A stretch of 58,928 nt of DNA, taken from NCBI GenBank assembly GCA_964520045.1, contig CAZFMJ010000007.1, positions 1 to 58,928 on the forward strand. The letters run 5' to 3'. Both the position numbers and the translations under genes were made by a program. The notes under the pieces were generated by a model, which saw nothing but the letters and a program-made list of their open reading frames with translations, ran no database searches and was not told where the DNA came from. Below are positions 6,483-58,885 of the stretch, in pieces (position 1 is the first letter of the stretch; each line of letters opens with the position of its first letter). The stretch comes from an uncultured Elusimicrobiales bacterium. Lineage in GTDB: Bacteria; Elusimicrobiota; Elusimicrobia; Elusimicrobiales; CAZFMJ01.

Positions 6483-6562
6483 GGTAGATGGTGAAATAAA
6501 AACAGATATAAAATTTCTCTGCTTATTTTTTTCCGTCTACCGTTTACCGTCTTCCATCTCCC
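6483..6562. repeat. Composite heptamer unit (purine arm / AT-rich core / inverted arm)
   Basis: GGTAGATGGTGAA ... CCGTCTACCGTTTACCGTCTTCCATCTCCC. Period 7. Confidence 0.8.
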
Positions 6563-6596
6563 TTAATAATTACGGAGGAAGAGGAGTCAATACTTT

Positions 6597-7952
6597 ATGT
6601 CTTTGAGCCTTAAAACCAGATTTTTTCTTGCGGCGCTGTTTGCGGCCTGCCTTATGGCCGGCTACTCCGCGATCATACTGCGCGGAAATAACACGATGGA
6701 CAGCCTTCTTAAAGAGAATCTGCCCAGGAGCCTTTCGGTTCTTCATGCCGCGGTTGAATTAAAGCATGCCGTTGTGTTTTACGACGATCTTATTTTCCGC
6801 TATATCACCACTTCGGACGCCCTTCTTCTTGAGGAAAGCATAAGGGCGAGAGAAAAAGCCAACCGTTATATTTCCGACTTAAAAAAACTTGAGCCGGGTC
6901 CGGTGGTCACCGAACTTCTTGACGAGCTGGGACGCGAAAGCAATGCCTATTTCAATGACGCCCAGAAGCTTATTTCAGCGGCTCCCAGTTCGGCTGTTCC
7001 CAGCGAGAAAGAATCGATACTCAAGATGATAGAATGGGCGCGCTCCGTCCCGCGCCAGCAGACCGCTCTTTCGATTCTTTCTTCCTCGGGCAGGGCGCGG
7101 CTTACCCGTCTTTATTCGCTTTGCGACAGGCTGGGAGATTTAAGCAGGCAGAATATCCAAAATGTGCAGATGCAGGCGGAAAAAATGTCCAGGTCCGGAC
7201 GCGATATGGCCGTATGGGCCGGAGGGGCGGTGATAACGGGCGGGTTCGGCATAGCGGTCATTCTGGCTATTTCAGTGCTTGCCCCGTTAAGGGGCCTTTT
7301 GGGCGGAATAAAAAGGATTATCGACGGCGACCTTTCCTTTGAGATCCCGCCGAAAGGGGACGACGAGATAGGAAGGCTTACCAACGCCTTCAATACCATG
7401 ACGCGCAAGCTTAAAGAAAAGGAAGACCAGCTGGTAAGGGAGACTATAACCGACGCTTTGACGGGCGCTTATAATTTCAAGTATTTCCAGGAGGTTCTGA
7501 AAAGCGAGGTGGAGAGGGCGAAAAGATACAAGCGGCCTCTTTCCGTTCTGATGCTGGATATCGATCATTTTAAAAAATTCAACGACTCTCACGGCCATGA
7601 AATGGGCAATGTGCTTCTGAAAAATCTTGTGCTCATTTTAAAGGAAAATATCAGGCCTTCCGATGTTTTCGCGCGCTACGGCGGAGAGGAGTTTGTTGTA
7701 CTTCTTCCCGACACGGATTCGGCGCAGGGCAAAGGCGTGGCTGAAAGGATCAGAGCCGCGGCTTCAGGGAGCGAATTCCCCGGGCAGGAAACCCAGCCTG
7801 GCGGAGTCGTTACGGTTTCAATAGGCGGTTCGACTTCTCCCATTCCGCCTATTTCAGCCAAGGACATCGTGCAGAAAGCGGACAAAGCTCTTTATCAGGC
7901 CAAAAACGAAGGCAGAAACCGCGTAATCTGGGAAGGGACCCATGGAAAATAA
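6597..7952 (+). CDS. Membrane diguanylate cyclase (HAMP + GGDEF)
   Basis: N-terminal TM segment. HAMP-like DDEIGRLTNAFNTMTRKLKE. GGDEF domain: LDIDHFKKFNDSHGH and RYGGEEFVVLLPDT. Confidence 0.9.
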   Translation: MSLSLKTRFFLAALFAACLMAGYSAIILRGNNTMDSLLKENLPRSLSVLHAAVELKHAVVFYDDLIFRYITTSDALLLEESIRAREKANRYISDLKKLEPGPVVTELLDELGRESNAYFNDAQKLISAAPSSAVPSEKESILKMIEWARSVPRQQTALSILSSSGRARLTRLYSLCDRLGDLSRQNIQNVQMQAEKMSRSGRDMAVWAGGAVITGGFGIAVILAISVLAPLRGLLGGIKRIIDGDLSFEIPPKGDDEIGRLTNAFNTMTRKLKEKEDQLVRETITDALTGAYNFKYFQEVLKSEVERAKRYKRPLSVLMLDIDHFKKFNDSHGHEMGNVLLKNLVLILKENIRPSDVFARYGGEEFVVLLPDTDSAQGKGVAERIRAAASGSEFPGQETQPGGVVTVSIGGSTSPIPPISAKDIVQKADKALYQAKNEGRNRVIWEGTHGK

Positions 7953-7967
7953 CGGAAAAGGAATAAT

Positions 7968-9770: not shown

Positions 9771-9840
9771 AAGAAGACGGTAGACGGCTAACTGGGGAGA
9801 AGAGGCGGGACAGCAATTAAGAAGTCACCAAGTCACCAGC
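9771..9840 (+). repeat. Heptamer (GACGGTAGACGG) and GTCACCA repeats after the symporter stop
   Basis: AAGAAGACGGTAGACGGC...GAAGTCACCAAGTCACCAGC. Confidence 0.7.
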
Positions 9841-9842
9841 CA

Positions 9843-9903
9843 TCCCAAACTTTCAGGTTAATTGGGGTGGCCCATTCTCAAGGCTTTAATGGAAAGAATG
9901 GAC
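9843..9903 (-). repeat. REP-like element, copy 2 (inverted, degenerate)
   Basis: TCCCAAAC..TTGGGG followed by CCCATTCTCAAGGCTTTAATGGAAAGAATGG, which is the reverse-complement orientation of the consensus. Confidence 0.65.
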
Positions 9904-9923
9904 CGTCTACTATCTACCGTTCC
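9903..9923 (-). repeat. Heptamer array; the purine version is on the minus strand, after the stop of the minus-strand gene
   Basis: CCGTCTACTATCTACCGTTCC on the + strand. Confidence 0.7.
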
Positions 9924-9928
9924 CTTGA

Positions 9929-10270
9929 TTATTTCAATGAAAATCTGCTTCCAAGCATAACATAGCTTTCTTTTTGGTCGGCGGACACCACCCTGATATA
10001 ATACTGGTATTGAATCGTCGTTGTTTTCTTTACCGCCGCTTTTTCCTCTTCGGTGAGCGTTCTGAGATAGCCGAAATATTTTCCGCGGAAGTTGACAAGC
10101 TGTCCGTTGAGCATCACTTCAGGGCTTATATTCAGCGGGCCCATATCCTCTATGGTTATGTGCGGAACGCGGAATGTCCACTTATTTTCGGCGCAGTACA
10201 CCGCCAGATTGGCGTCTCCCGAAGGCGAGGGGAAATATTCCCGCAGTTCGCGGTTTACGTAAAAATGCAC
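9929..10270 (-). CDS. Hypothetical protein; possibly the 3' part of a frameshifted secreted-protein gene
   Basis: 113-aa ORF with no recognisable motif. A signal-peptide mini-ORF at 10255-10368 overlaps its 5' end in another frame (see findings). Confidence 0.45.
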   Translation of the reverse strand: MHFYVNRELREYFPSPSGDANLAVYCAENKWTFRVPHITIEDMGPLNISPEVMLNGQLVNFRGKYFGYLRTLTEEEKAAVKKTTTIQYQYYIRVVSADQKESYVMLGSRFSLK

Positions 10271-11933: not shown

Positions 11934-12041
11934 GAGGGTAGAAGGCAGACGGGAGAAGGTAGACGGTAACCTAAAAACAAAGAAAAGAAACATCTAAGAC
12001 GAAGATAAGCCGTCTCGCAGTCCAGCTGTCCAGCAGTCCAG
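11934..12041. repeat. Heptamer array followed by an octamer (GTCCAGCN) array, between convergent genes
   Basis: GGGTAGAAGGCAGACGGGAGAAGGTAGACGG ... GCCGTCTCGCAGTCCAGCTGTCCAGCAGTCCAGC. Confidence 0.8.
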
Positions 12042-21477: not shown

Positions 21478-22329
21478 ATGAAAATTATTCTTTTTGACAT
21501 AGACGGAACGCTTGTAAAAGCCGGCGGAGCCGGAAAACTCGCCTTAAACAAGGCGGTAAAGACCCTTCACGGCGCCGAGGATGTCTGCTCAAAATTTTAT
21601 CTTGCCGGAGGCACCGATAAGGTTAATTTTATGCAGGCTTTTATCGAGGCAAAAGGCAGAAAGCCGGCAAGGAAGGAAGTAAAGGCCGTAGAAAAAAAAT
21701 ATCTCGAACTCCTGCCGGCGGAAGTGGACAATGCGGTTAAAGACGGCAGATACATGGAAATACCCGGAGTCGCGCAATTGCTTAAGTTTTTATCAAAACG
21801 CAGAGATGTTTTTATCGGGCTCGGCACGGGAAATCTAAAAAAGGGCGCTTTTATAAAGCTCAAGCCTTCGGGTTTGTCAAAATATTTTATATTCGGTGGA
21901 TTCGGCTGTGATTCCTATGAAAGGGCGGAAGTGCTGAAAAAGGCTGTTAAAAGGGCGGAGAAAATAGCGGGCAGAAAAGCGCGGGTCTGCGACGTGTATA
22001 TTATAGGAGACACCCATAAGGATGTTTCCGCCGGAAAAGAGGCGGGGTATCATACCGGCGCCGTAACGTGCGGTTTCGGCGACCGTTCTAAAATAATGAG
22101 AACAGGGCCTGAGCTTGTTGCCGAAGATTTTACGGATTTATCCCCGTGGCTTATATGGCTTGGGCTGAAAAAAGACCCGAAAGGAATAAAACGCGATTCG
22201 CTGATGTTTCCGGACACGCCTATCGAACATGTGCAATACGCGAGAACAGGAGAAGAGGGTAGATGGGAGACGGTAGACGGTAGACGGCAAATGGGGAAAG
22301 GGAGACGGAAGAGTAAAAACGGCAAATGA
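21478..22329 (+). CDS. HAD-superfamily hydrolase (phosphatase)
   Basis: Motif I is ILFDIDGTLV. Motif IV-like is YIIGDTHKDV. The last ~25 aa (GEEGRWETVDGRRQMGKGRRKSKNGK) are translated from the heptamer repeat array. Confidence 0.8.
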   Translation: MKIILFDIDGTLVKAGGAGKLALNKAVKTLHGAEDVCSKFYLAGGTDKVNFMQAFIEAKGRKPARKEVKAVEKKYLELLPAEVDNAVKDGRYMEIPGVAQLLKFLSKRRDVFIGLGTGNLKKGAFIKLKPSGLSKYFIFGGFGCDSYERAEVLKKAVKRAEKIAGRKARVCDVYIIGDTHKDVSAGKEAGYHTGAVTCGFGDRSKIMRTGPELVAEDFTDLSPWLIWLGLKKDPKGIKRDSLMFPDTPIEHVQYARTGEEGRWETVDGRRQMGKGRRKSKNGK

Positions 22330-22369
22330 TTTTTTTTACCGTTTACCTTTTACCATCTACCTTCTACCG
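22250..22369. repeat. Composite heptamer unit overlapping the HAD gene 3' end
   Basis: GGAGAAGAGGGTAGATGGGAGACGGTAGACGGTAGACGG...core...TACCGTTTACCTTTTACCATCTACCTTCTACCG. Confidence 0.85.
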
Positions 22370-27023: not shown

Positions 27024-27088
27024 GAAGGATGGTAGCTGTTGTTTTCTTTTACCTTCTACCGTTTACCGTCTTCCGTCTCCCGTCTATT
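27024..27088. repeat. Heptamer arms overlapping the GH20 3' end
   Basis: GAAGGATGGTAGC ... ACCTTCTACCGTTTACCGTCTTCCGTCTCCCGTCTA. Confidence 0.8.
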
Positions 27089-39867: not shown

Positions 39868-39898
39868 ATGAGGTGATTACTATGGCGTTTACACGCGG

Positions 39899-40101
39899 CA
39901 AACGGTAGACGGTAAACGGTAGATGGTAAAACAAAAACTGATATCAATTTTCTTGTGTTTGTTTTGTCCACTATTTACCATTTACCTCTTTCAGTCTAGC
40001 GTCTCCCAGTTTGCCTTTAGCAATTTAGCCGTCAAGCTGTCCCGCTGTCTAGCTGCCCAGCAGCCGCTTTTCTTCCGTCTACCGTTTACCTTCTACCGTC
40101 T
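39899..40101. repeat. Composite heptamer/octamer unit filling the xylF-xylG spacer
   Basis: CAAACGGTAGACGGTAAACGGTAGATGGTAAAAC ... core ... TTTACCATTTACC...GCTGTCCCGCTGTCTAGCTGCCCAGCAGCC...CCGTCTACCGTTTACCTTCTACCGTCTTAC. Confidence 0.85.
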
Positions 40102-41120
40102 TACTTCTTCATCTGCCTATAAACATCCTCTTTTTTGTGAAATCCGCTCTGCACTATGACTTTATCCAGATTGGCTTTTGTCACGGGCGTTACATCCAGA
40201 AGGATGGCGTCCACTCCGTCCACTTTAGATTTTGCCTTGGCCGGTTTTTTCCCGTTTGCGAGTTCTATGGCCGCTTTTACCGCTTCTTTTATGAGGATGC
40301 GGATATCTTTTAAAATAGTCACGGCCTGAGTGCCTTCGGCCACGCGCTGGACGGCGGCTATTTCTGCGTCCTGTCCTGAGACGGGCACTTTCCCGGCCAG
40401 TTTCTGCGCCGCAAGCGCTTGTATGGCTCCTCCCGCGGTGCCGTCATTTGAAGCCAGAACAGCGTCTATTTTGTTCTGGTTTTTAGTAAGAGCGTTTTCC
40501 GTGTGTTTTAAGGCTTCCTGCGGGCTCCAGCCTTCGCACCACTGTTCCGCGATCAGTTTTATTTTACCTTTGTTGATAAGAGGCTGAAGTATGTTCATAT
40601 GGCCTTTGCGAACCAGATGCGCATTGTCGTCCGCCGGGTGTCCCCCGAGCCAGAGATAATTGCCCTGGGGTTTAAGGGCGGTTACCGCTTTTGCCTGCGC
40701 TTCCCCGACTTTTACGCTGTCAAAGGAGATATAAAGCGACACGTCTTTGCTTGGTATGAATCTGTCGTAAGCTATTACCGGAATTTTTTCCGCTTTTGCC
40801 GCGGTTACCGCTGGTATCACGGAATTTCTGTTCTGCGGGATAATTATGATTACATCGGCTTTCTGCGTTATGAGGTTTTCTATCTGCTGGTTCTGCACGC
40901 TTTCGTCGCCGTTTGCCACCTGTATTATCAGGTCGGCGTTCTGTTCTTTCGCGGTCTGCTCGAAAATCTTTTTTTCGCGCGACCATCTCTCCTCCTGAAG
41001 CGTGGCGAACGAGACTCCTATCTTCACCTTGTTTTCGGCCGCATATACCGTGCTAACCGATGACGCAAAAATATATATCGCCATTGCAAACAGCAATATT
41101 GCATTTATCATTCTTTTCAT
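40101..41120 (-). CDS. xylF: Periplasmic sugar (xylose-type) binding protein
   Basis: Signal peptide, then KIGVSFATLQEERW and the PBP type I organisation. First gene of the minus-strand operon. Confidence 0.85.
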   Translation of the reverse strand: MKRMINAILLFAMAIYIFASSVSTVYAAENKVKIGVSFATLQEERWSREKKIFEQTAKEQNADLIIQVANGDESVQNQQIENLITQKADVIIIIPQNRNSVIPAVTAAKAEKIPVIAYDRFIPSKDVSLYISFDSVKVGEAQAKAVTALKPQGNYLWLGGHPADDNAHLVRKGHMNILQPLINKGKIKLIAEQWCEGWSPQEALKHTENALTKNQNKIDAVLASNDGTAGGAIQALAAQKLAGKVPVSGQDAEIAAVQRVAEGTQAVTILKDIRILIKEAVKAAIELANGKKPAKAKSKVDGVDAILLDVTPVTKANLDKVIVQSGFHKKEDVYRQMKK

Positions 41121-43666: not shown

Positions 43667-46219
43667 ATGAAAACGCATTCATTTAACGTGATTCCCAATC
43701 TTCCTGAAAATCTTAAAAAACTGGCGGATATTTCCATGAACATGTGGTTTACATGGAATTGGGAAGCCATAATGATGATGGTGGGCATGGATGAAGGTTT
43801 ATGGCATAAATCCCATAGAAATCCGAAGTGGGTTCTGGGCAGTCTGCCCCCTGAAAGGCTGGATGAGCTCAGCCGCGATCCGGAGTTTTTGAAGCGTCTT
43901 GAAAGCGTATGGGGGCATTATCAGGATTATCTTAAAAGGCCGACATGGTTTGAAAAATACCGGTCTCCGCAGGAGGAAGGTTTTACCGCCGCGTATTTTT
44001 CAATGGAATACGGGATAGGAGAAGGTCTTCCGATATATTCGGGAGGACTCGGCATGCTTTCCGGAGATCATCTCAAAACTGCCAGCGATTTGGGGCTTCC
44101 GGTCATAGGCGTGGGCCTTCTTTATCAGAAGGGCTATATCCAGCAGGTGCTTAACCGTGATTTCTGGCAGGTGGAGCGCTATCCTGAAAATGACTGGTAT
44201 AATATGCCGGTCCAAATCGTCAATGACGGTTCGGATAAGCCGCTTCGCGTCGAAGTTCCGCTGGGCGACGAAATAATAAAGGCCGGGGTATGGAAAGTTC
44301 CCGTGGGCAGAACGTCTCTTTATCTTCTTGACACCAATATTCCTGATAATCCTCCGCATTACCGCGATATAACGGAACAGCTTTACGGGGGCGACCGCGA
44401 AACCAGAATACGGCAGGAAATAGTTCTGGGCGTGGGCGGAGTTAAAGCTCTTTCGGCCATGGGCATAAATCCCACCGTGTATCATATAAACGAGGGGCAT
44501 TCGGCATTCCTTCTTTTTGAAAGGATACGCATGCTTATGTCGGAAAATAAATTTTCTTTTTCCCAGGCGCGGGAAGCGGTGTGGGCAAGCTCCGTTTTTA
44601 CGACGCATACTCCGGTGATAGCAGGAAACGAGCATTTTGATCCAGGGCTTGTAAAACGCTACATGGAGCCGTATTCAAGACAGTTCGGCATTTCATGGGA
44701 TGAGTTCCTTAAAATGGGAAAAGAGGACGACAATTCGCCGTCCTTCTGCATGACCGTGGTGGCTCTGCGTCTTGCGGCTTTTCTTAATTCCGTAAGCCTT
44801 CTGCATCAGAAAACTTCAAGGAGCATGTGGCAGAAGGTCTGGCCCAGCCTTCCCGAGCATGAAATTCCGATACAAAATGTTACAAACGGCGTGCATACCT
44901 GCTCATGGGTGAGCCACGAGTACCACGAACTTTACCGGAAATACATAACGCAGGCGGGGCAAAGCTGTGACGCCGATATGGCGGATGCCGCGATGTGGGC
45001 AAAAGTGGAAAATATCCCCGACGAAGAATTATGGGGCGCCCATATAATACGCAAGAACAAGCTTTTTAATCTTGTGAGGGACAGGCTTAAAAGGCAGTTG
45101 ACCAGGCAGGGAGCGGATCCCACTGTGGTCGGCGATGTGAACGCGTTATTTGATCCGGGCCTGCTTACCATAGGTTTTGCCCGCAGGTTCGCAAGCTATA
45201 AACGGGCAAATCTCATTTTTAGGGATTTGGAAAGGCTTGAAGAAATAGTCAATAACAGCAAGATGCCGGTGCAGTTTATTTTTGCCGGGAAAGCGCATCA
45301 GGCCGACACCGTAGGCAAGGAGATAGTCAAGTCCGTAGCCAGACTGATGACTGATAAGCGGTTCAGGGGCCGCGTCGTTTTCGTAGAAGACTACAATATG
45401 AATGTGGCGCGCTATCTGGTGCAGGGAGTCGACGTGTGGCTTAACAATCCGATAAGGCCTATGGAGGCTTCGGGCACGAGCGGAATGAAGGCGGCCGTAA
45501 ACGGTGTGCTCAACCTGTCTGTTTTAGACGGCTGGTGGTGCGAAGGCTATTCTCCCGAGACAGGCTGGGCGGTAGGCGGAGCCGAGCAGTATAAGGATGA
45601 TGAAGAGCGGGATTATGTGGAATCGGAGGCGGTTTATAATCTCATACAGAAAGTGATAGCGCCGCTTTATTACAGGAAGGATGACAAGGGCATTTCGCGC
45701 GACTGGATGCGGATGATGAAATCCTCAATAAAAAAACTGGCTCCCGTATTTTCAACCCACAGAATGCTTCGCGAATATTACGACAGGTTTTATGTTCCGG
45801 CCAACCGCGCCTGCAGGAAACTGGCTTTTAACGGAGGGGCAAGAGAGGTCGCCGGGTGGCGCAGTAAGATAGAAATGAACTGGCCCATGGTGAAAGTAGC
45901 CGTGGAATCTTTCAAGCCCGACATGGAAATCCGGGCCGGCAATAAAGTGCCTGTAAGGGCAAAGGCATGGCTCGGAGAGCTTACTCCGGATGAAGTGGAA
46001 GTGCAGATTTATACCGGCAAAATAGACGCTTCCGGCAGTTTTATGAACGGAATGCCTGTTACTATGCATTCCGAAGGCAGGGACGGGGACGCATATGTTT
46101 TTGCCGCGGATATCCTGTGCGGAAAAAGCGGACGGCATAATTTTGCGGTAAGGGTGCTTCCCAAACACGGAGATCTGCCCCATTCGTTCATGCCGCTTTT
46201 TATAAAGTGGAATGAGTAA
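43667..46219 (+). CDS. glgP: Alpha-glucan phosphorylase (GT35, DUF3417-type N-terminus)
   Basis: MWFTWNWEA N-terminal motif. PLP-lysine motif EASGTSGMKAAVNG. ATG at 43667 follows AAGGGG. Confidence 0.9.
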   Translation: MKTHSFNVIPNLPENLKKLADISMNMWFTWNWEAIMMMVGMDEGLWHKSHRNPKWVLGSLPPERLDELSRDPEFLKRLESVWGHYQDYLKRPTWFEKYRSPQEEGFTAAYFSMEYGIGEGLPIYSGGLGMLSGDHLKTASDLGLPVIGVGLLYQKGYIQQVLNRDFWQVERYPENDWYNMPVQIVNDGSDKPLRVEVPLGDEIIKAGVWKVPVGRTSLYLLDTNIPDNPPHYRDITEQLYGGDRETRIRQEIVLGVGGVKALSAMGINPTVYHINEGHSAFLLFERIRMLMSENKFSFSQAREAVWASSVFTTHTPVIAGNEHFDPGLVKRYMEPYSRQFGISWDEFLKMGKEDDNSPSFCMTVVALRLAAFLNSVSLLHQKTSRSMWQKVWPSLPEHEIPIQNVTNGVHTCSWVSHEYHELYRKYITQAGQSCDADMADAAMWAKVENIPDEELWGAHIIRKNKLFNLVRDRLKRQLTRQGADPTVVGDVNALFDPGLLTIGFARRFASYKRANLIFRDLERLEEIVNNSKMPVQFIFAGKAHQADTVGKEIVKSVARLMTDKRFRGRVVFVEDYNMNVARYLVQGVDVWLNNPIRPMEASGTSGMKAAVNGVLNLSVLDGWWCEGYSPETGWAVGGAEQYKDDEERDYVESEAVYNLIQKVIAPLYYRKDDKGISRDWMRMMKSSIKKLAPVFSTHRMLREYYDRFYVPANRACRKLAFNGGAREVAGWRSKIEMNWPMVKVAVESFKPDMEIRAGNKVPVRAKAWLGELTPDEVEVQIYTGKIDASGSFMNGMPVTMHSEGRDGDAYVFAADILCGKSGRHNFAVRVLPKHGDLPHSFMPLFIKWNE

Positions 46220-46261
46220 GAAGATGGTAGACGGTAGAAGGTAAACGGGAGACGGTGAAAA
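46220..46261 (+). repeat. Heptamer array after the glgP stop
   Basis: GAAGATGGTAGACGGTAGAAGGTAAACGGGAGACGGTGAAAA. TAG/TAG/TAA at 46228, 46235 and 46242 fall in all three frames. Confidence 0.85.
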
Positions 46262-47427: not shown

Positions 47428-48636
47428 ATGCTGCTAAAACTTGCGTTCCGCAATATTTTCAGGCAGAAGAGGCGGTCTTTTCTCACTGGGCTTACTATCG
47501 CCATGGGGACTTTTCTCTGCGCTGTTTTTTTGGGGATAAGCGAGGGAAGCTATTCCCGCCTCATAGACGCCTTCACGCGCGATCACACCGGCCATATCCA
47601 AATACACAGGAAAGGATATCCGGACAAGCCGGTTCTTTGTAAAACCATAAACGGGCTTGATGAAATAGAAAAGGCGCTTGCGGGCCGTTCCGAGGTGGTT
47701 TCATGGACGTCGAGGATCACCGCGCCGGCCATGGCGTTTTACGGCAATAGATCAACCTCTGTAAGAGTTATCGGAATAGACGGGAGGAAAGAGCCGCTTA
47801 CCACCAGATTTATGCGGAAAATACGTTCCGGCAGTTTCTTTTCATCCGCAGGAAACGAGGTAATTTTGGGCGCGGGCGCCGCAAAAATACTGGGCGCGCG
47901 GACAGGCGGTGAAATAGCGCTTATAAGTCAGGCGGGGGACGGCTCCGTAGCCAATGCTGTTTTTACCGTCTCCGGCGTGATAGGAAAGGACAACGATTCT
48001 TACGAGCGGCTGAACTGCTATATGGAAATCCGGACAGCCGGCAGTTTTTTCGCGCTGGAAAACAGATATCATGAAATAGCGGTTCTGTTAAAAAAGCCGT
48101 CGCTTTCAGTTAAAACGGCGCAATTAATAAATAACGCCCTTAACAATTCCGATCTGGAGGCATTGCCGTGGCAGGAGATTGAAAAGCCTTTTTATAAGGC
48201 GATGAAAGCCGACAAAAAAGGCAATACGATAATGCTGGTGATAATACTTGTTCTTATGGCCGTGGGAGTGCTCAATACTGTGCTTATGACGATACTCGAG
48301 CGCACCCGCGAATTCGGCATATTGAAAGCTCTGGGCTCCAGGCCTTCCGGCATATTTTTGCTCATAGTCTTGGAAACGGTTTTCCTTGCGGTTGTTTCGG
48401 TGTGCGCCGGCATTGCGATGGGCATGGCCGCGAATTTCCTGCTTGGAAAATACGGGATACCTTCCGGCCCCGCAGTTGAGATAGGGGGGATAAGGTTTGA
48501 AAAAATATACGGCAAGGTTTCATTCTATACCGTCTGGGCTCCTTCTTCGGCGGCGTTCTTGTCGGCCCTGCTTGTGAGCCTGCTCCCGGCTTTGCGCGCC
48601 GCAAGAATCGTGCCGGTAAAGGCTATAAGAGAATAA
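47428..48636 (+). CDS. ABC transporter permease, FtsX/MacB/LolC type
   Basis: LKLAFRNIFRQKRRSFLT N-terminus, a large periplasmic loop and a C-terminal 3-TM FtsX domain (REFGILKALG). Confidence 0.85.
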   Translation: MLLKLAFRNIFRQKRRSFLTGLTIAMGTFLCAVFLGISEGSYSRLIDAFTRDHTGHIQIHRKGYPDKPVLCKTINGLDEIEKALAGRSEVVSWTSRITAPAMAFYGNRSTSVRVIGIDGRKEPLTTRFMRKIRSGSFFSSAGNEVILGAGAAKILGARTGGEIALISQAGDGSVANAVFTVSGVIGKDNDSYERLNCYMEIRTAGSFFALENRYHEIAVLLKKPSLSVKTAQLINNALNNSDLEALPWQEIEKPFYKAMKADKKGNTIMLVIILVLMAVGVLNTVLMTILERTREFGILKALGSRPSGIFLLIVLETVFLAVVSVCAGIAMGMAANFLLGKYGIPSGPAVEIGGIRFEKIYGKVSFYTVWAPSSAAFLSALLVSLLPALRAARIVPVKAIRE

Positions 48637-48742
48637 GAAGACGGTAAACGGTAGACGGGAGAAGGTAGACGGAAAAATATACCGAGGAAAATTTAATACC
48701 GTTTTTGTTTTACCGTCTCCCGTTTACCATCTACCTTCTACC
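48637..48742. repeat. Composite heptamer unit (core type 1) between the two FtsX genes
   Basis: GAAGACGGTAAACGGTAGACGGGAGAAGGTAGACGG / AAAAATATACCGAGGAAAATTTAATACCGTTTTTGTTTT / ACCGTCTCCCGTTTACCATCTACCTTCTACCG. Confidence 0.9.
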
Positions 48743-49988: not shown

Positions 49989-50022
49989 GAAGAAGGTAGA
50001 CGGAAGAAATAAGAGGGTAGAC
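49989..50022 (+). repeat. Heptamer arm after the FtsX stop, immediately 5' of REP copy 10
   Basis: GAAGAAGGTAGACGGAAGAAATAAGAGGGTAGACGG. Confidence 0.8.
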
Positions 50023-50093
50023 GGCCCATTCCTTCCTCAAAAGCAGTGAGAATGGGCCGCCCCAAACTCACTGATTTTAATGATTGTTTGGGG
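50023..50093 (+). repeat. REP-like element, copy 10
   Basis: GCCCATTCCTTCCTCAAAAGCAGTGAGAATGGGCCGCCCCAAACTCACTGATTTTAATGATTGTTTGGGGCG. Confidence 0.8.
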
Positions 50094-50210
50094 CGGGAGA
50101 TGGTAGATGGTAGACGGAAGAAAATAAGAGGGGAAACCGAGAAAAAATCACCTTATGTCTTTTTCTTTATTTATTGTACCTTCTACCGTCTACCTTTTAC
50201 CGTTTACCCT
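50094..50210. repeat. Composite heptamer unit (core type 2) before the ABC ATPase gene
   Basis: GGAGATGGTAGATGGTAGACGG ... ACCTTATGTCTTTTTCTTTATTTATTGTACC / TTCTACCGTCTACCTTTTACCGTTTACCC. Confidence 0.9.
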
Positions 50211-50220
50211 CTGCTGATTT

Positions 50221-50946
50221 ATGAACATTCAAAATAAACCAGTCCCTGTGATAGACGTTGAAAAGGTGAGCAAAATATACGGCTCCGGCGAAACCGCCGT
50301 CACGGCGGTAAATTCGGTTTCAGTAAAGATATATCAGGGAGAATTTACCGCCATAATAGGTCCTTCGGGGTCCGGAAAATCCACTCTGCTTAATATCATA
50401 GGGGGGCTGGATATTCCGTCTTCCGGAAGCGTATTGCTTTCCGGAAAGTCTATAAGCGCGATGACAGGCAGGGAGCTTTCTGATTTCAGGCGCGATAGGA
50501 TAGGCTTTGTTTTTCAGTCATACAATCTTATTCCCGTTCTCAATGTGGCGGAAAATGTTGAATATATCATGCTTCTTCAGGGGATAGGCTCCGCTGAGCG
50601 CAGGCACAGGGTCATGGAGATGCTTGAGGAAGTGGGATTAGGCGATAAGGCGGAAAGAAAACCCAACCAGCTGTCCGGCGGTCAGCAGCAGAGGGCGGCG
50701 ATAGCAAGAGCGATGGTTTCAAAACCCGATATAATACTTGCCGATGAGCCTACCGCAAATCTGGATTCGGCCTCCGGCATAGCCCTTGTGGAGATGATGC
50801 GGGCCATCAATGAGAAAAGAAAAGTCACTTTTGTCTTTTCAACGCATGACTATAAAATAATAGAAAGAGCAAAACGCATGATAACTCTCAGGGATGGAGC
50901 GGTGGTGGAAGACGGTAAACGGGAAACGGTAGATGGTAGACGGTAA
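50221..50946 (+). CDS. ABC transporter ATP-binding protein (LolD/MacB type)
   Basis: GPSGSGKST, LSGGQQQRAAIARA and ILADEPT. The last ~12 aa (EDGKRETVDGRR) come from the heptamer array. Confidence 0.9.
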   Translation: MNIQNKPVPVIDVEKVSKIYGSGETAVTAVNSVSVKIYQGEFTAIIGPSGSGKSTLLNIIGGLDIPSSGSVLLSGKSISAMTGRELSDFRRDRIGFVFQSYNLIPVLNVAENVEYIMLLQGIGSAERRHRVMEMLEEVGLGDKAERKPNQLSGGQQQRAAIARAMVSKPDIILADEPTANLDSASGIALVEMMRAINEKRKVTFVFSTHDYKIIERAKRMITLRDGAVVEDGKRETVDGRR

Positions 50947-51044
50947 AAAGGAAACAGAAGAGGGAAAATAGAAAAGAAAATTACCTTATGTCTTTTTCTT
51001 GATTTTTTGTACCTTCTACCATCTCCCATTTACCATCTACCTCT
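50907..51044. repeat. Composite heptamer unit (core type 2) overlapping the ABC ATPase 3' end
   Basis: GGAAGACGGTAAACGGGAAACGGTAGATGGTAGACGGTAAAAAGG ... ACCTTATGTCTTTTTCTTGATTTTTTGTACC / TTCTACCATCTCCCATTTACCATCTACC. Confidence 0.9.
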
Positions 51045-52305: not shown

Positions 52306-52365
52306 ATTAAGTTTTGTAATATCTATAAAGGGATTACATCAGGTCGTTTAGGCTGAAGACTGATA

Positions 52366-52443
52366 AAGACGGGAGATGGAAGACGGTAAATGGTAGACGG
52401 GAAAAATATACACGAGAGAATTTGTGTCTGTTTTTGTTTTGCC
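52366..52443 (+). repeat. Heptamer arm plus core type 1, 5' of REP copy 11
   Basis: GACGGGAGATGGAAGACGGTAAATGGTAGACGGG / AAAAATATACACGAGAGAATTTGTGTCTGTTTTTGTTTTGCCG. Confidence 0.85.
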
Positions 52444-52518
52444 GCCCCATTCTTTCAACTAAAGCCTTGAGAATGGGACTGTCCCAAACCCAACTGCCTT
52501 TAAGGAATCGTTTGGGAC
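52444..52518 (+). repeat. REP-like element, copy 11
   Basis: GCCCCATTCTTTCAACTAAAGCCTTGAGAATGGGACTGTCCCAAACCCAACTGCCTTTAAGGAATCGTTTGGGAC. Confidence 0.8.
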
Positions 52519-52550
52519 GTCTACCGTCTCCCATCTACCGTTTACCTTCT
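52518..52550 (-). repeat. Inverted heptamer arm, 3' of REP copy 11
   Basis: CGTCTACCGTCTCCCATCTACCGTTTACCTTC. Confidence 0.85.
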
Positions 52551-52939: not shown

Positions 52940-52943
52940 AAAA

Positions 52944-53100
52944 GAGAGTAGAAAGTAGATAGTAGAAGAGAAACAGAAAGCAAGAGAAGCAACGGAAAAA
53001 TGCTGGACGGCTAGACTGCTGGCAGCCGGAACTGGTGACATGGTGACTGGTGACTCTGTCACTGGGCAACTGGGCTGCCGGGTGTCTGGGCGGCTGGGGA
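52944..53100 (+). repeat. Heptamer, then octamer/GGTGAC arrays after the DUF3467 gene
   Basis: AGTAGAAAGTAGATAGTAGAAGAGAAACAGAAAG...GCTGGACGGCTAGACTGCTGGCAGCC...CTGGTGACATGGTGACTGGTGACTCTGTCACTGGGCAACTGGGCTGCCGGGTGTCTGGGCGGCTGGGG. Confidence 0.85.
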
Positions 53101-53110
53101 GGGGGAACTC

Positions 53111-54277: not shown

Positions 54278-56221
54278 ATGAAAACGTGTTGCGGAAAATT
54301 TCTCATTATGTTTTTCATCGGCGCTCTGCCGGTTTTTCTTCCCGCGGGGGGAAGAGCTGAGATAGAGGCTTTGGATATCGCTTTGCTCGAGAGAGAGGTG
54401 GAAATCAGGAAGGATGTGGAAACGAAAATAAAAAGCGAGATCCTGGACCCCATATTAGGGGAAGGCAGGTCGTCAGTATTCGCCGACGTTGAGCTTGAGA
54501 TAGTGTCGCGCAAGGCCGACCAGACCCGCACCGGAATAGGGGTGGCCCAGAAATACAAAGAAAAAAGCTCGGGGGGCAATTCAAAGGGCGATATACAGTA
54601 CATAATGCCGGGCATTCCAAAACCCAAATCAGTGCTGGGCGGAGGGTCGGACAAGCCCGAGGCGGCGCAGGGACAGCAGGCCCAGCAGGAAAAGGGAGTG
54701 AAGGAAACGCGCTACGGCATGGAAGTGGACATAAAAAGATTCCAGCTTACGGTCATCCATGACGACTCTCTTTCCCAATCCAGCCTTAAGACGGCCAGAG
54801 AGAGAATAAACGACGCGCTTCTTCCGTATAAGATAAAAAAGAAAGACCTTCCGACCGTGGTTTTTAAGCCCACGAAATTCAAAGCGCATAATATGCTTGA
54901 CGACTTAAAAAGGCCGGGCGTCTATCTTCCGCTTTTATACGCTTTTTTGTCGCTTCTCCTTCTGCTGTTTTTGTTCGGTCCGGTGGCTTCGTTCCTGAGA
55001 AAATACGTAAAGGCCTTTCTTGAGAAACCCGGCGCGGAGGTGAATATCGAGTCAAAAACCGAAACTCCGGAAAATGCCGGCGGAGGCAAGGGAGGCGTGG
55101 AGGAGGGGCATCAGCAGATCGACATGATGTTCCAGCAGAAAGAAGAGGACAAGGAGGACGAGGAGGACGAGGCCATGAAAAAATTTGAGCCGTTTTCCTA
55201 TATAAACGAGGAAAATCTTAAGCGGTTGATTTATATGTTTCTTTTGAGGAGGGAGGAGCCGTGGGTTATAGCCGTTGTTTTAAGCTATCTTAGGCCGGAA
55301 TTTGCGAGACAGGCTCTTTCCATGCTTCCGCTTGAAATTCAAGCCAAAGTCGCCATGGAGGCGCTTACGGTGAGGCAGATCACGAAAGACCAGGTAAGGG
55401 CGATCGACGCCCAGGTAAAGGAGAATGTGGATTTTGTGGTCGGGGGAGTGGACAGGCTTACCAGAATGCTTGAGGATTCCGACCCCGGCACGCGGCAGAA
55501 TATATTGGAATATCTCAAGACGCAGAAGCCGGCCACGTACGAGAGACTTAAAAAATCCATCCTTACGTTTGAGGATATGGGGCATTTCCCGGATAAAGAC
55601 ATGCAGATCGTGATACGCGGGCTGAATACGGAAGATATAGCAAAGGCTCTCCAGAAAGCGCCTCCCGAGGTGGCGGACAAGTTTTTTGCCAATATGTCGG
55701 AGCGGGCGGGGGCGATGCTTAAGGAAACCATGGAATATTTCGTGGATATAACGCCCGTGCAGATGGAAGAAGCCCGCATGAAAATAATCGACGTGATAAA
55801 GACGCTTGAAAAAGAGGGCAAGATAACCGTAAGGGAGCAGAATTCCGACGAAGCCAGAATAGACGAGATGGAGATATCCGCCGAAAACGAACGGAGAAAG
55901 AAATTGGAAAATATCGCGGGCATGGATGCGTCGCAATCGTCCGCCGCGCAGCCGGCGGGCGGACAGTTCGGACAGTATCTGGAGGCCGGAACGGCTTTGT
56001 ATAACGAGGGGCGTTACGAAGAAAGCATGCAGTATCTGCAGTATGCCGTATCCGGAGATCCGTCGCTTTGGCAGGCTTACCAGTATTTAGGGGCCGCCTG
56101 TTATGCTTTGGGCAGAGCGCAGGAAGCCGTGCAGTTTTATGAAAAATATGCCCTAGAAAGCAATGACCCGGCGGTAAAGGATTGGGTCGCAAATTTTAAG
56201 CAGAATGCGGGAAAAAGTTGA
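54278..56221 (+). CDS. FliF(RBM3)-like periplasmic domain + TM + FliG middle/C-terminal domains + TPR fusion protein
   Basis: IKSEILDPILGEGRSSVFADVELE and ETRYGMEVDIKRFQLTVIHDD (FliF/YscJ-like split RBM). TM segment VYLPLLYAFLSLLLLLFLFG. FliG-like EEPWVIAVVLSYLRPEFARQALSMLPLEIQ, ILTFEDM and FFANMSERAGAMLKETMEY...EEARMKIIDVIKTLEKEGKI. TPR repeats at the C-terminus. Confidence 0.75.
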   Translation: MKTCCGKFLIMFFIGALPVFLPAGGRAEIEALDIALLEREVEIRKDVETKIKSEILDPILGEGRSSVFADVELEIVSRKADQTRTGIGVAQKYKEKSSGGNSKGDIQYIMPGIPKPKSVLGGGSDKPEAAQGQQAQQEKGVKETRYGMEVDIKRFQLTVIHDDSLSQSSLKTARERINDALLPYKIKKKDLPTVVFKPTKFKAHNMLDDLKRPGVYLPLLYAFLSLLLLLFLFGPVASFLRKYVKAFLEKPGAEVNIESKTETPENAGGGKGGVEEGHQQIDMMFQQKEEDKEDEEDEAMKKFEPFSYINEENLKRLIYMFLLRREEPWVIAVVLSYLRPEFARQALSMLPLEIQAKVAMEALTVRQITKDQVRAIDAQVKENVDFVVGGVDRLTRMLEDSDPGTRQNILEYLKTQKPATYERLKKSILTFEDMGHFPDKDMQIVIRGLNTEDIAKALQKAPPEVADKFFANMSERAGAMLKETMEYFVDITPVQMEEARMKIIDVIKTLEKEGKITVREQNSDEARIDEMEISAENERRKKLENIAGMDASQSSAAQPAGGQFGQYLEAGTALYNEGRYEESMQYLQYAVSGDPSLWQAYQYLGAACYALGRAQEAVQFYEKYALESNDPAVKDWVANFKQNAGKS

Positions 56222-56375
56222 AGAAGAGGGTAGAAGGTAGACGGGAGACGGTAGAAGGTAAACAGCAGAAGGTACAAAGAAAATGATAAACAGAAGATGG
56301 GATACCGGAGACGGAAGAAATGAGATGTTAGGTGTAGATTTTACCGTCTACCATTTACCGTTTACCATCTACCTT
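56222..56375. repeat. Composite heptamer unit between the FliG-like and coiled-coil genes
   Basis: AGAAGAGGGTAGAAGGTAGACGGGAGACGGTAGAAGGTAAAC ... core ... TTACCGTCTACCATTTACCGTTTACCATCTACCTTC. Confidence 0.9.
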
Positions 56376-56391
56376 CTTTTCTGGAGGTTTT

Positions 56392-58785
56392 ATGGACGAA
56401 GAAAAAGATAAATTTGAAAAACAGCGCAAACCTTTGCCTCCTTTGCCGCCTCTGCCTCCGGGGATGATTCCTCCGCAGTCCGCCGGCAATACCATTAATC
56501 TCAATTCTGCCAAAAATCAGGGTTTTCTGCCTTTTCCGCCCGGCATGCCGTTGTCTAAACCCGGCATTCCGCAATTTTCTCCGGCATCGTCCAATCAGCC
56601 GCCTGCTTTCGGCTCCATTCCGCCGGCGCCTCCTTTTACACAGCAGTCATGGCAGTATCCGGCGGAAAGGCCTGCCGAGGCCGAAAAGGCCCTGAAGCAG
56701 TCTGAAACCGAAAAACACGAACTGGAGCATAAGCTTGCCGATGCGGAAAAGCTTTTGTCTCAGGAAAAAGAGAAGGTTCTGCTTGCAAATATAAGAAGCC
56801 AGGAAGAAGCCGCTCTTTCCGCAAAAGTCGAGATTTCCCTCAAGGAAATACAGGACAGGCTCCGCAGAGACAGGCGCGAGCAGGAGATAGAGGAAGAAAA
56901 AGCCCGTCTGCAGTCAAAAGTCAAGGAACTAGAAGCGCGCATCCTGCAGGAAAGAGAAACATGGATGCAGACTCTTAAAACGCAGATGGAAAAGCGCGAA
57001 AGCCAGGACAAAGACATAGAAATTCATTTTGTTTCCCGCCTTCAGGAAATGGAGCGGAGATGGCTGGATGAAAAAGCGCAGTGGCAGAGGACCATAATGG
57101 CGAAGGAAGAGGAACTGCGCGAGCATAAAGGGGGCTCCGCTAAAATAAGGGATTTGGAAGACGAGCTTAGAAAAACGGCGTTTGAAAAAGAAAATCTTGA
57201 TAAGGATATTTCAAAGCTGCGTGAAACCATAGTTAATCTGGAAAAACAGAGAGCCTCCGATGAATCGGCTTTGCGCAACGTTTTTGAAAAAGCCAGGGAA
57301 CTTGAGGCGGTCAGGTCCGAGATGTCGGCGATGAAGAACAGGGAAGACAAAATGCTGGCGGACATGGAACGGCTTCAAAGGGAATTGGGTTTATCGGCGG
57401 ACAGGCATCAGGATGAAAAGGAAACCGCGCTTAAAAAGGCGCAGGAATCTTATGAGCGCTCTCTTCAGGAAAAAGACAAAGCGTTGGCCGATGCCGCAAG
57501 AGAGAGGGTTCAGGCTGTTTCGGAACTGGTAAAGATAAAAAGCTTTATTTCAAAACTGCAGGCCGTAAACTCGGCGCTGGAAAAGGAGCGCGGCGCTTTG
57601 CGCATGGAAAAGATGCAGCTCGCGCAGGCTCTTGCCGGGCATACCGGCGCCATGAACAAGCTTAAGGAGGAGATGTCCGAACTCGAGGCAAAGCGGCGGG
57701 AGGAAATAGAGAAACTCTACCATGCCTGGTCCGCAAAAGAGGCCGAAAACCGGAAGAACTACGAAGAGACTCTCAAGCAGCAGTTTGAAAGCATACTCCG
57801 CAACGAAACCAAGAAAATAGAGACAAAATACGAAATGGACGCGTTGGATATAGAGAAGAAAACCCGCCAGCAGGCTGAAGCCGAATATGCCAAGCGCAAC
57901 GAAGAGCTGGTGTCCAGAGCCGAACTGGCGGATATGAATGCCGGCAAACTTAAAGATGAAAATAAGAAGCTTGACGGGCAGTATAAAGCTCTTCTCGCGA
58001 ATTATCAGTGCGCGGAGCTGGAAAAGAAATATGCCGAAGAGGGAACCGGCCGTCTGGAGGATACGATTAAGGTTTTTGAGGCCGAAAAAGCCGAACTTAA
58101 GGGGGCGTTGAATAAGCTGCGCGAAGAGGGTATGCGTTTTGAAGAGGCAAAAAAGAATCTTAAAAATGATAAGAGCCGGCTTGAAACGGAAAAGCGGAAT
58201 CTTATTCTTCAATTGCAAAGCAGCGCGTCGCAGGGCGGAGTTCCGGATGAGCGGTTAAAGGCTTTAGAAGAGGAAAAGGACCGTCTTGAACGGGAAAATC
58301 AGGATCTTATCCTTCAATTGAAGAGCCGCGGTCCGCAGAGCGGAGTGTCGGAAGAGTCGTTTAAGGCCATTGAAAAAGCAAAGGCTATGCTGGCTGAAGA
58401 AAAACGTCTTTTGGACGGGCATAAGCGCCTGCTTGCGCAAGAGGTTGAAAAAATTTCAGCGGAGAGGGAGCAGGAGAAAACGGCCATAGCCGGGATTCAG
58501 GAGCAGATAAATAAAATGCAGGAGGAACGCGCCGGGCTGGAATCTGAAATCCTGAATCTGCGGAACAAAAATCAGGAGGCGGCTTCTCAAATAGAGGGAT
58601 TCAGAAGGCAGACACAGGGGGAAAGAGAGGCGTATGAAAGAAAACAGACTGAACTTAAATACCAGCTTGAGCGGTGCTCGGGGTTTATTGCCGAGCTTCA
58701 GAAAAAAAACAGCTATTATGAAGAGAATATGTCAAAAGGTTTTATCGACCGCATGAAATGGGCCGCGAAGTATAAAGGAGAGTAG
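56392..58785 (+). CDS. Giant coiled-coil protein with a proline-rich N-terminus
   Basis: 797 aa. N-terminal PLPPLPPLPPGMIPP...PAPPF, followed by about 650 aa of E/K/R/L/Q-rich heptad-like sequence. Good RBS (GGAGG). Confidence 0.7.
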   Translation: MDEEKDKFEKQRKPLPPLPPLPPGMIPPQSAGNTINLNSAKNQGFLPFPPGMPLSKPGIPQFSPASSNQPPAFGSIPPAPPFTQQSWQYPAERPAEAEKALKQSETEKHELEHKLADAEKLLSQEKEKVLLANIRSQEEAALSAKVEISLKEIQDRLRRDRREQEIEEEKARLQSKVKELEARILQERETWMQTLKTQMEKRESQDKDIEIHFVSRLQEMERRWLDEKAQWQRTIMAKEEELREHKGGSAKIRDLEDELRKTAFEKENLDKDISKLRETIVNLEKQRASDESALRNVFEKARELEAVRSEMSAMKNREDKMLADMERLQRELGLSADRHQDEKETALKKAQESYERSLQEKDKALADAARERVQAVSELVKIKSFISKLQAVNSALEKERGALRMEKMQLAQALAGHTGAMNKLKEEMSELEAKRREEIEKLYHAWSAKEAENRKNYEETLKQQFESILRNETKKIETKYEMDALDIEKKTRQQAEAEYAKRNEELVSRAELADMNAGKLKDENKKLDGQYKALLANYQCAELEKKYAEEGTGRLEDTIKVFEAEKAELKGALNKLREEGMRFEEAKKNLKNDKSRLETEKRNLILQLQSSASQGGVPDERLKALEEEKDRLERENQDLILQLKSRGPQSGVSEESFKAIEKAKAMLAEEKRLLDGHKRLLAQEVEKISAEREQEKTAIAGIQEQINKMQEERAGLESEILNLRNKNQEAASQIEGFRRQTQGEREAYERKQTELKYQLERCSGFIAELQKKNSYYEENMSKGFIDRMKWAAKYKGE

Positions 58786-58885
58786 ATAGTATATAGTATA
58801 TAGCAGAAAATAGACGGGAAAATCGGGTGTCTGGGCCGCTAGGCGGCTGGACGGCGAGACAGCTATTTAAGATGTCACCAGTCAT
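58786..58885 (+). repeat. Heptamer, then octamer arrays after the coiled-coil gene
   Basis: GTAGATAGTATATAGTATATAGCAGAAAATAGACGGG...GGGTGTCTGGGCCGCTAGGCGGCTGGACGGCGAGACAGC...GTCACCAGTC. Confidence 0.8.

Follow-up and report, generated by a model that had tools for sequence, protein, structure and literature searches.

Heptanucleotide arrays at gene ends in an uncultured Elusimicrobiales bacterium are the arms of small palindromic intergenic repeat elements

About half of the longer intergenic spacers in a 58,928-nucleotide stretch of DNA from an uncultured Elusimicrobiales bacterium (GenBank assembly GCA_964520045.1, contig CAZFMJ010000007.1, positions 1 to 58,928; this whole stretch is termed here the window) contain tandem arrays of a degenerate heptanucleotide, GGNARAN. 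The analysis described here shows that these arrays constitute both arms of small palindromic repeat elements lying between genes; these elements fall into the class of long simple-sequence heptamer repeats resembling the short tandemly repeated repetitive (STRR) sequences. The layout of an element is an A/G-rich heptad arm, a run of A, an AT-rich core, a run of T and a complementary heptad arm. At least some of the elements are dispersed copies of one element that occur in either orientation and whose arms then vary locally in unit number and variant. The placement of the arrays is described by a single geometric rule: the strand rich in A and G heads away from the neighbouring gene, and does so at stops and starts alike.

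Arrays were identified by chaining matches to GG[TGA]A[GA]AN at 7-nt spacing, with Tandem Repeats Finder (TRF) run in parallel. Both procedures recover 7-nt-period arrays at every coordinate listed in a preliminary description of this DNA, including all of its minus-strand examples and all eight of its plus-strand pairs (at 6483/6528, 18043/18243, 22251/22334, 48636/48708, 50095/50181, 50907/51014, 52364/52519 and 56222/56339). There are 25-26 GGNARAN arrays in the 59-kb window, 25 of them with at least two GG[TGA]A[GA]AN units (12 on the plus strand and 13 on the minus strand), as against a chance expectation of 0.54 arrays on average and 3 at most (50 shuffles). The modal array length is 4-5 units. 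Over the approximately 116 units in the window, position 1 is G in 85% and position 2 is G in 91%; position 3 is T in 59%, A in 20% and G in 18%; position 4 is A in 97%; position 5 is G in 67% and A in 30%; position 6 is A in 97%; and position 7 is C in 48%, A in 25% and T in 19%. Some arrays have, according to TRF, a 14-nt super-period. An assembly artefact confined to this contig is ruled out because two independent assemblies of the same organism, termed here L001 (ENA ERZ5996431; 99.9% identical over 1662 nt) and L125 (JGI 3300009296; 98.9% identical), carry the same arrays with equal unit counts. A search of the window against Rfam 15 returned 0 matches at the gathering score.

The preliminary description had placed arrays at more than 20 junctions and at most gene junctions; the arrays are indeed there, and the count is lower: of the 32 spacers exceeding 50 nt, about 17 have heptamers, and 'most junctions' are occupied only when sister families with units of 8-11 nt are included. 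Within these 32 spacers, heptamers occur at 3/3 convergent and about 14/24 co-directional junctions and at 0/5 divergent ones (hypergeometric p = 0.015). About 12 of the 17 stop-side arms overlap the stop codon or begin no more than 10 nt from it. The genes on either side are of ordinary kinds: alr, a GGDEF gene, an amylase, ack/pta, GH20/GH18/GH3 genes, a sugar ABC system, a glucan phosphorylase, an operon of LolA-like, MacB, MacB, ABC and outer membrane protein (OMP) genes, and a FliG-like gene.

In all of the roughly ten arm pairs in the window the purine arm comes first, an order that had been read as a polarity locked to transcription. The data do not support that reading, the pattern being mostly an effect of symmetry. 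An inverted repeat of the form A-loop-rc(A), where rc denotes the reverse complement, reads identically on both strands, and a purine arm after the stop and a pyrimidine arm before the start are therefore automatic for paired arms; the purine-first order is thus a symmetry property of the element and not a read-out of transcription direction. When all short-period arrays in the window are considered, the A-rich strand runs 5' to 3' away from the nearest gene in a ratio of 31:4 when judged by AT skew and 29:6 when judged by GC skew, the exceptions being, apparently, nested arms or coding sequence. Families whose units are C-rich and nonetheless contain more A than T (AGTCACC) follow the AT rule. 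Of the solo arms in the window, 11/12 are, by reading, purine-rich on the coding strand after stops.

The same geometry recurs well beyond this organism. A scan of 185,579 species genomes for (GGDARAN)x4 found at least 120 loci among the matches listed, which come from cyanobacteria, Gemmatimonadota, Bacteroidota, Planctomycetota, Elusimicrobiota, Proteobacteria and others; the cross-phylum counts given below all refer to these matches. Among arrays within 60 nt of the end of a long open reading frame (ORF), the G-rich strand points outward at 49 stops and 11 starts and inward at 5 and 0, that is, 60:5 overall, where ORF ends are heuristic and the counts at starts are soft. Many of the cyanobacterial arrays obey the rule, and so do arrays devoid of stop triplets (39:3). 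Among 109 arrays with full flanks, a complementary partner lies downstream (G-strand first) in 21 and upstream in 0, and none of the models tested explains this 21:0 convergent rule. The 50 solo arrays comprise 39 that follow a stop with the G-strand coding, 7 that precede a start, all with the C-strand coding, and 4 of the opposite kind; the pre-start arrays, being pyrimidine-rich in the mRNA by 7:0, fit an 'away from the gene' rule and not a 'coding strand' rule. In one Elusimicrobiota metagenome-assembled genome (L046, JBDRNC010000003.1), GGAAGAC/GGGAGAA heptamers at 866-900 and 6768-6794 have their C-rich strand inside apparent coding regions, the host genes being D-Ala-D-Ala ligase-like and UDP-GlcNAc 2-epimerase-like on a translation read by eye only.

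That some elements are dispersed copies follows from the fact that four of them have a common, non-palindromic core of about 45 nt (GGAAAAATATAC..GA.AAATT....GTTTTTGTTTTACC) in either orientation. A search for the core pattern yields 4 matches in the window, two per strand, where 0.13 are expected. Relative to the genes, the core has the same orientation at 48637, 52364 and 39897 and the opposite orientation at 6483, yet all four core-bearing elements, including the inverted one at 6483, read purine-first. These observations point to the spread of some elements as units, in the manner of miniature transposable elements with inverted repeats (MITEs) or repetitive extragenic palindromic (REP) sequences. 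The elements are like MITEs in being small and non-coding, with inverted terminal arms and dispersed copies that have a homologous interior, and the window also holds an autonomous-looking cassette (encoding a GxxExxY protein; see below) with internally deleted derivatives. They differ from MITEs in their arms, which are tandem arrays that vary in length where MITEs have fixed terminal inverted repeats, and no target-site duplication or transposase was identified. The REP sequences of enterobacteria and pseudomonads, together with the bacterial interspersed mosaic elements (BIMEs) and hairpin-forming REP doublets (REPINs) built from them, are imperfect palindromes dispersed over 3' and intercistronic sites, in mosaic or nested arrangement and in either orientation; their arm is a conserved sequence of about 35 nt linked to REP-associated tyrosine transposases (RAYTs), and their stem-loops, when transcribed, can stabilise upstream mRNA. 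The elements described here match them in position and palindromic form, with a conserved core in 4 copies per 59 kb, and differ in having tandem simple-sequence repeats (SSRs) as arms; none of the genes in the 59-kb window encodes a RAYT (IS200/IS605-like) transposase.

The arms are complementary, as had been proposed, and the spacers fold into long imperfect hairpins with predicted energies of -26 to -86 kcal/mol, beyond those of dinucleotide-shuffled controls (z = -2.8 to -6.3). Located as they are inside operons, the elements must, to judge from the sequence, be part of polycistronic RNA. Intercistronic RNase III sites of the phage T7 type are double-stranded RNA stems of about 20 bp or more that lie between cistrons and are cleaved in vivo; the predicted stems between cistrons here would have this double-stranded form. 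Nor do they have the form of an intrinsic terminator, in which a U-tract comes after a short GC-rich stem: here the T-run is contained in the stem, ahead of the 3' arm and not behind it. Only the element at 18043 encloses a terminator-like stem.

Comparison of orthologous spacers, which the preliminary description had recommended, indicates that some of the gene pairs overlap in relatives, with no spacer, and that some relatives have the same layout with other units. The relatives are distant: the nearest proteins are 52-65% identical to those of the window, and the best named match to Mfd, from Elusimicrobiaceae, is 48% identical. The MacB1/MacB2 and ABC/OMP gene pairs, which in the window are separated by 60-230 nt of element, overlap in the relatives L002, L003 and L124. 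In L002, which has a syntenic glgP-LolA-MacB-MacB cluster, MacB1 and MacB2 overlap by 4 nt, and the ABC and OMP genes of L124 share 11 nt (L002, L124 and L129 represent one Logan sample). The median spacer is 171 nt in the window, 93 nt in L130 (GCA_043817835.1), where arrays are present, and 28 nt in L131, a compact sequence in which no arrays were found. The elements have thus expanded the spacers of this lineage, including those between cistrons that overlap in relatives; at 52-62% amino-acid identity, exact empty sites cannot be defined in the relatives that lack these spacers. The organism represented by L002/L129 has the same layout built from the units AAATCCC/GGGATTT, GGGTTAG and GAGTGCG, and L130 has AGAAGTC and GGTAAGAA pairs. 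Because relatives keep the layout with other units, the layout is a trait of the clade, with a unit sequence that turns over fast. The occupancy of orthologous junctions likewise differs among relatives.

Two breaks in synteny between the window and L125 may be recorded here: L125 1560-1914 diverges from the window (52540 onwards) exactly within a right heptamer arm, and L125 1-113 diverges at 51081, within the region encoding the signal peptide of the OMP gene. Either recombination has taken place at arrays, or repeats have induced a chimeric join in an assembly of low coverage.

Turning to the individual elements, the four that have the common core are as follows. The element at 6483..6562, between alr (5244-6356) and the GGDEF gene (6597-7952), consists of a purine arm (6483-6496), the core in reverse (6490-6534) and a pyrimidine arm (6528-6562), with a minimum free energy (MFE) of -29.1 kcal/mol (z = -6.3). 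The element at 48636..48742, between two MacB/FtsX permease genes, has its core at 48671-48714 (+; z = -4.5), and that at 52364..52546 has its core at 52399-52443 (+), followed by an inserted double-hairpin element that precedes the pyrimidine arm at 52519-52546. The fourth lies in the spacer at 39897..40104, between minus-strand genes for a sugar-binding protein (40101-41120) and an ABC ATPase (38332-39867); this spacer contains an arm at 40070-40104 (-), which follows the stop at 40101, octamers at 40026-40055, an arm at 39973-39986 (-), the core in reverse at 39925-39979 and an arm at 39897-39931 (+), which precedes the start at 39867.

Other pairs vary in what they enclose and in how far they reach into genes. 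The heptad arms at 18043-18077 (+) and 18243-18270 (-) are the basal part of a hairpin of 230 nt (-80.2 kcal/mol) whose tip carries a terminator-like stem. The pair at 22251..22368 (z = -6.3) has a purine arm at 22251-22313, which the ORF of a HAD hydrolase translates as a C-terminal tail, and a pyrimidine arm at 22334-22368. In the element at 49995..50215 (-85.6 kcal/mol), which is identical in L001 except for 2 single-nucleotide differences, a double-hairpin element (50024-50092) is inserted between the purine arms 49995-50022 and 50095-50122 (+), and the pyrimidine arm lies at 50181-50215. Its neighbour at 50907..51041, with a core that is 92% identical to that of the 50095 element, has a purine arm (50907-50948) that supplies the ABC ATPase gene with its final 12 codons and its stop, and a pyrimidine arm (51014-51041) that ends 5 nt upstream of the true start at 51046. 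The pair at 56222..56380 (z = -5.8) lies between the FliG-like gene (stop at 56221) and an ORF at 56392-58785. (Each of these two genes also contains a coding repeat: a 9-nt GAGGACGAG repeat at 55145-55172 in the FliG-like gene, and a 105-nt, 35-residue repeat in 1.8 copies at 58176-58367 in the ORF.) The pyrimidine arms are free of stop codons and, as had been noticed earlier, generate spurious N-terminal ORF extensions (LFYRLPFTIYLLP), the true starts being likely those at 48783 and 51046.

The remaining arrays are solo, variant or convergent. At 9773-9790 (+) and 9905-9925 (-), short heptamer arms at a convergent junction have between them an AGTCACC array (9822-9838) together with a double-hairpin element in reverse orientation; the array at 9905-9925 follows the stop of a minus-strand ORF at 9929-10270. 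This 113-residue ORF looks more protein-like than the overlapping plus-strand ORF with a TTG start (9974-10390), although neither has a match in Pfam or NCBIfam, and taking it as the gene makes 9770|9929 a convergent junction. A solo purine-strand array at 11937..11964 (+) begins 9 nt past the stop at 11928 and faces a non-complementary octamer array (12020-12043) located behind the converging gene's stop. The solo array at 27047..27088 (-) overlaps the stop of the GH20 gene (27056-29146, minus strand) and faces non-complementary octamers at 26818-26845 across a bidirectional terminator-like hairpin. In the minus-strand xyl cluster there are variant heptamers of AGTAGAC type at 34303-34332 (an AGTAGAC/AGTAGAT unit, preceding the start at 34287), of AGCGATA type at 34357-34392, and of GGAAAAC/GGGAAAC type at 34441-34454 (-). 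The solo purine-strand array at 46219..46253 (+) begins at the stop codon of the glgP-like gene, has no pyrimidine partner and is followed by solo G-rich octamers at about 46355-46395. Solo AGTAGAA-type heptamers at 52943..52967 (+) directly follow the stop at 52939 and are succeeded by G-rich 8- and 9-mers (53000-53105) up to the next start; and AGTAGAT/AGTATAT heptamers at 58781..58803 (+) overlap the stop at 58785 and are succeeded by G-rich octamers at 58826-58862.

Reading all of the spacers reveals that the heptamers, correctly described before, are one of several flavours of repeat with the same layout, which the preliminary description had not separated out. There are two 8-mer families (AGACRGCK/GCTGGACG, and CTGGGTGN/AGTCACC(A)), a 9- to 11-mer family (AACGCAAAG) and a further GTAGACAGAATTC type; the 8- to 11-nt families of the window have no stop triplets. 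Octamers of the AGACRGCK/GCTGGACG and CTGGGTGN families occupy spacers in this layout at 47278-47419, 38042-38139 and at the octamer positions just listed (53000-53105, 26818-26845, 12020-12043, 40026-40055 and 58826-58862), and two long solo octamer arrays, with the G-rich strand as the coding strand, extend right to a start codon (at 38030, minus strand, and at 53111). Arrays of AGTCACC/CTGGTGA also occur within mfd (1119-4613, minus strand), where at 3668-3890 they form a 45-nt super-repeat that is translated in frame as an insertion of about 85 residues in the linker of Mfd; this insertion is absent from the relatives P0241, P0243 and P0252, and in the relative P0242 (L130) this linker site contains a repeat insertion of another kind.

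The heptad arms are also interleaved with a conserved double-hairpin element of about 75 nt (CCCATTCYTTCC..TTGAGAATGGG, then TCCAAACTCAYTGC..GGTTTGGA), which occurs in at least 10 copies in 59 kb, inside or beside repeat arms, and which at 50024-50092 splits a purine arm. The pattern gives 9 matches in the window where 0.06 are expected and has no Rfam match; two metagenome scans for it returned 0 matches and 3 chance matches. Copies lie on the plus strand at 6380-6450, 21378-21450, 23217-23290, 23370-23490, 25990-26060, 26960-27015, 41590-41660, 50024-50092 and 52441-52516, and in reverse at 9845-9904 and about 15640-15830. In L125 an 11-nt indel deletes the loop of its second hairpin and leaves the stem. 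It looks like either a REP/MITE-like element or a small structured RNA. Two copies contain, within the loop of the second hairpin, a palindromic insert (..CCGCCTCTCCG..GCGGATGGCGAGATCCCGCC..; 23420-23475 and 15660-15745), which makes three levels of nesting. Finally, the ORF at 4788-5180 encodes a PD-(D/E)XK GxxExxY protein (PDDEXK_3, TIGR04256) and is flanked by inverted tandem AACGCAAAG arms, forming a cassette at 4749-5240. Three internally deleted derivatives (23312-23621, 25940-26170 and 41755-41935) retain the two arms, the 3' end and some 20 codons from the N terminus, which is the pattern expected of a putative autonomous element and its MITE-like derivatives.

STRR sequences are heptamers of heterocystous cyanobacteria with many dispersed non-coding copies, mainly as direct arrays. 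The present elements are alike in consisting of dispersed tandem heptanucleotides and differ in unit sequence, in being palindromic elements with cores rather than direct arrays, and in taxon, the gene content and best matches of the window not being cyanobacterial. STRR sequences, named earlier as the only analogue known to that description's author, are a fair one; a closer precedent exists in the G-rich heptamers GGGAATC of Xanthomonas and GGGGA[C/T]T of Nostoc/Anabaena (Rehm et al. 2015; PMC4692102), and the layout is accordingly not novel. Those arrays, typically of about four or more copies, are about 90% intergenic, form 70-75 convergent +/- pairs per genome, place the G-strand 0-50 bp past a stop, which it sometimes overlaps, when it is the coding strand, or ahead of a start when it is the non-coding strand, are rare between divergent ORFs and are flanked by ordinary metabolic genes (PMC4692102). 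They are transcribed, form G-quadruplex (G4) structures in vitro and vary in unit sequence and length between close relatives, and no regulatory role or function was found for them (PMC4692102).

The window agrees with that description in its tandem 7-nt arrays of about four or more units, strongly enriched over chance; in their intergenic placement at gene ends, with the G-strand coding after stops and non-coding before starts; and in the frequency of convergent pairs and under-representation between divergent ORFs. It departs from it in lacking tracts of 3-4 G: the units are degenerate GGNARAN, with GG followed by T, A or G, only 18% having GGG, and their potential to form G4 structures is accordingly weak. 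The density here is about 12 times higher, at 26 arrays in 59 kb as against 186 in a genome taken here to be about 5.1 Mb. In the window, moreover, most arrays are paired, non-repeat cores are common to several elements, 8- to 11-nt sister families are present, and elements nest with other palindromic elements and are inserted between formerly overlapping cistrons; the host, too, differs in belonging to an uncultured lineage. The window repeats are, then, of the same kind as the Xanthomonas/Nostoc heptamers, whose paired-arm, stop-to-start layout was already published in 2015; what is new is their density, the shared cores, the sister families, the nesting with the double-hairpin element and the GxxExxY cassette, and the insertion between cistrons that overlap in relatives. 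The direct TAACTGA heptamers of Beggiatoaceae, cyanobacteria and Bacteroidetes are likewise intergenic at many unrelated genes, are placed by coding boundaries and have a suspected post-transcriptional role; they differ in being nearly all direct (with one inverted set), just upstream of starts and of a single exact unit (MacGregor 2015, PMC4679880).

The explanation favoured here, tentatively and as the best of several, is that these are palindromic SSR-armed elements, some of them dispersed, that act at most as generic structured RNA spacers. The elements would be transcribed within mRNAs and would fold into imperfect stems at least 30-40 bp long, the majority of which would start at the upstream stop codon or no more than about 10 nt from it. 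Such a stem would loop the inserted DNA out and could serve at most as a generic structured spacer--that is, as a barrier to 3'-exonucleases or as an RNase III substrate, like REP/BIME sequences and the sites that phage T7 has between cistrons. Beside coding ends, an insertion would be tolerated only if it pairs with itself and its A/G-rich strand leaves the gene, and insertions would not be tolerated in divergent promoter regions; together these filters would yield the observed placement, with purifying selection shaping persistence. Avoidance of Rho utilization (rut) sites as the sole filter is weakened by the C-rich units that follow stops and by the solo pyrimidine-rich arrays that precede starts.

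Several observations weigh against this explanation. No evidence was found for selection on pairing itself: pairing between a left arm and the right arm of its own locus is no better than pairing with right arms from other loci (permutation p = 0.83), as though the arms of one locus were independent draws from one degenerate set of units; sense and antisense MFEs favour each strand at five junctions, with a mean difference of about 2 kcal/mol; and counts of G-U pairs (63 against 52) give no signal. At two convergent junctions (11937/12020 and 26818/27047) the facing arms are of different flavours and non-complementary, and the hairpin is not required because several arms (46219, 52943 and others) are solo. 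C-rich units with more A than T (AGTCACC, and AAATCCC in relatives) occur after stops on the coding strand. A scan of 40-59 kb, uninformative as regards loops, found no canonical terminator or promoter in the heptamer loops, and reading the element flanks by eye revealed no consistent target-site duplication, which leaves a gap in the case for a mobile element. Lastly, variation within the unit is position-specific, G1, G2, A4 and A6 being kept in 85-97% of units and positions 3, 5 and 7 varying in 33-52%; this is predicted neither by neutral decay nor by selection for pairing, and it leaves room for a sequence-specific reader or generator.

Some of these same observations lend themselves to a purely selfish or neutral account, in which functionless arrays arise by replication slippage and MITE-like spread and are found wherever insertion is harmless; this is possible, and appreciably less probable than the structured-spacer explanation. 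It would accommodate the absence of covariation between arms, the rapid turnover of units among relatives while the layout persists, the differing occupancy of orthologous junctions, the invasion of coding ends and of the mfd linker, and the finding of no regulatory role by Rehm et al. (PMC4692102). It sits poorly with the position-specific variation within units and with unit counts that are stable in two strains at 99-99.9% identity, and the 21:0 and 60:5 orientation ratios would need a strong general filter or mechanism.

A further conjecture is that the arrays are the output of a general, hitherto unrecognized process that across bacterial phyla lays short-period repeat arrays with the A/G-rich strand outward: repeats would be synthesized onto 3' ends at breaks or insertions in spacers, with telomere-like polarity, the ends then being rejoined, possibly with the involvement of GxxExxY-type nucleases. 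In this clade the process would have run away, rebuilding nearly every spacer as nested hairpins. This conjecture is considered doubtful. Slightly more doubtful still is the proposal that the arrays are binding sites, in double-stranded DNA or single-stranded nucleic acid, for an abundant protein that reads GG.A.A. heptads, and that they serve as insulator, nucleoid or partition sites. The omega repressor of pSM19035, for example, binds contiguous 7-bp heptads in direct or inverted arrangement. Heptad operators are established (compare the title of PMC9499535), and a heptad reader would suit a unit with four of its seven positions near-invariant and three free, the 14-nt super-period of some arrays and arms that need no complementarity. 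Against it, close relatives use different units in the same layout, which would demand fast co-evolution and several readers, and no candidate protein was identified.

The view closest to the preliminary description, namely that these are transcription-locked intercistronic modules in which the purine arm is a three-frame stop sink and the arm pair a selected RNase III/RNase E stem, is improbable. The stops are real--TAG 46228, TAG 46235 and TAA 46242 cover all three frames after glgP--and so are the stable predicted stems and the solo arms that are purine-rich on the coding strand after stops (11/12 in the window, 39/50 elsewhere). Three-frame coverage is, however, mere arithmetic, because 7 is not divisible by 3, and a stop sink as the driver of polarity is ruled out by the stop-free heptamer arrays that obey the same rule (39:3). 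The sister families likewise lack stop triplets, the orientation of the core is not locked to the genes, neither covariation nor a sense bias was found, and solo pre-start arrays elsewhere are pyrimidine-rich in the mRNA (7:0). Least probable of all is that the arrays form G-quadruplexes modulating transcription or translation near gene ends: they share a genomic layout with repeats that form such structures in vitro and typically have at least four units, but GG runs with 5-nt loops would give at best a weak two-tetrad structure, related families of the clade without G runs (AGAAGTC, AACGCAAAG, AAATCCC) keep the layout, and AT skew is no worse than GC skew as a predictor of orientation, so that quadruplexes are unlikely for GG units and impossible for several of the sister units.

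The over-representation of heptamers in the intergenic DNA of bacteria has been known since the STRR work of about 1990 and the surveys of 2007-2015 that followed, with no accepted function or origin. In practical terms, the arrays cause systematic errors in gene calling (N-terminal extensions and C-terminal tails) and possibly breaks in assemblies. For the biology of the repeats, the window contributes three points. The shared cores show that elements spread as units. Several unit families obey one geometric rule, even where they contain neither stop codons nor G-tracts, which removes explanations based on a stop sink or on quadruplexes. And, because elements separate cistrons that in relatives overlap, what they do to operon expression is directly testable.

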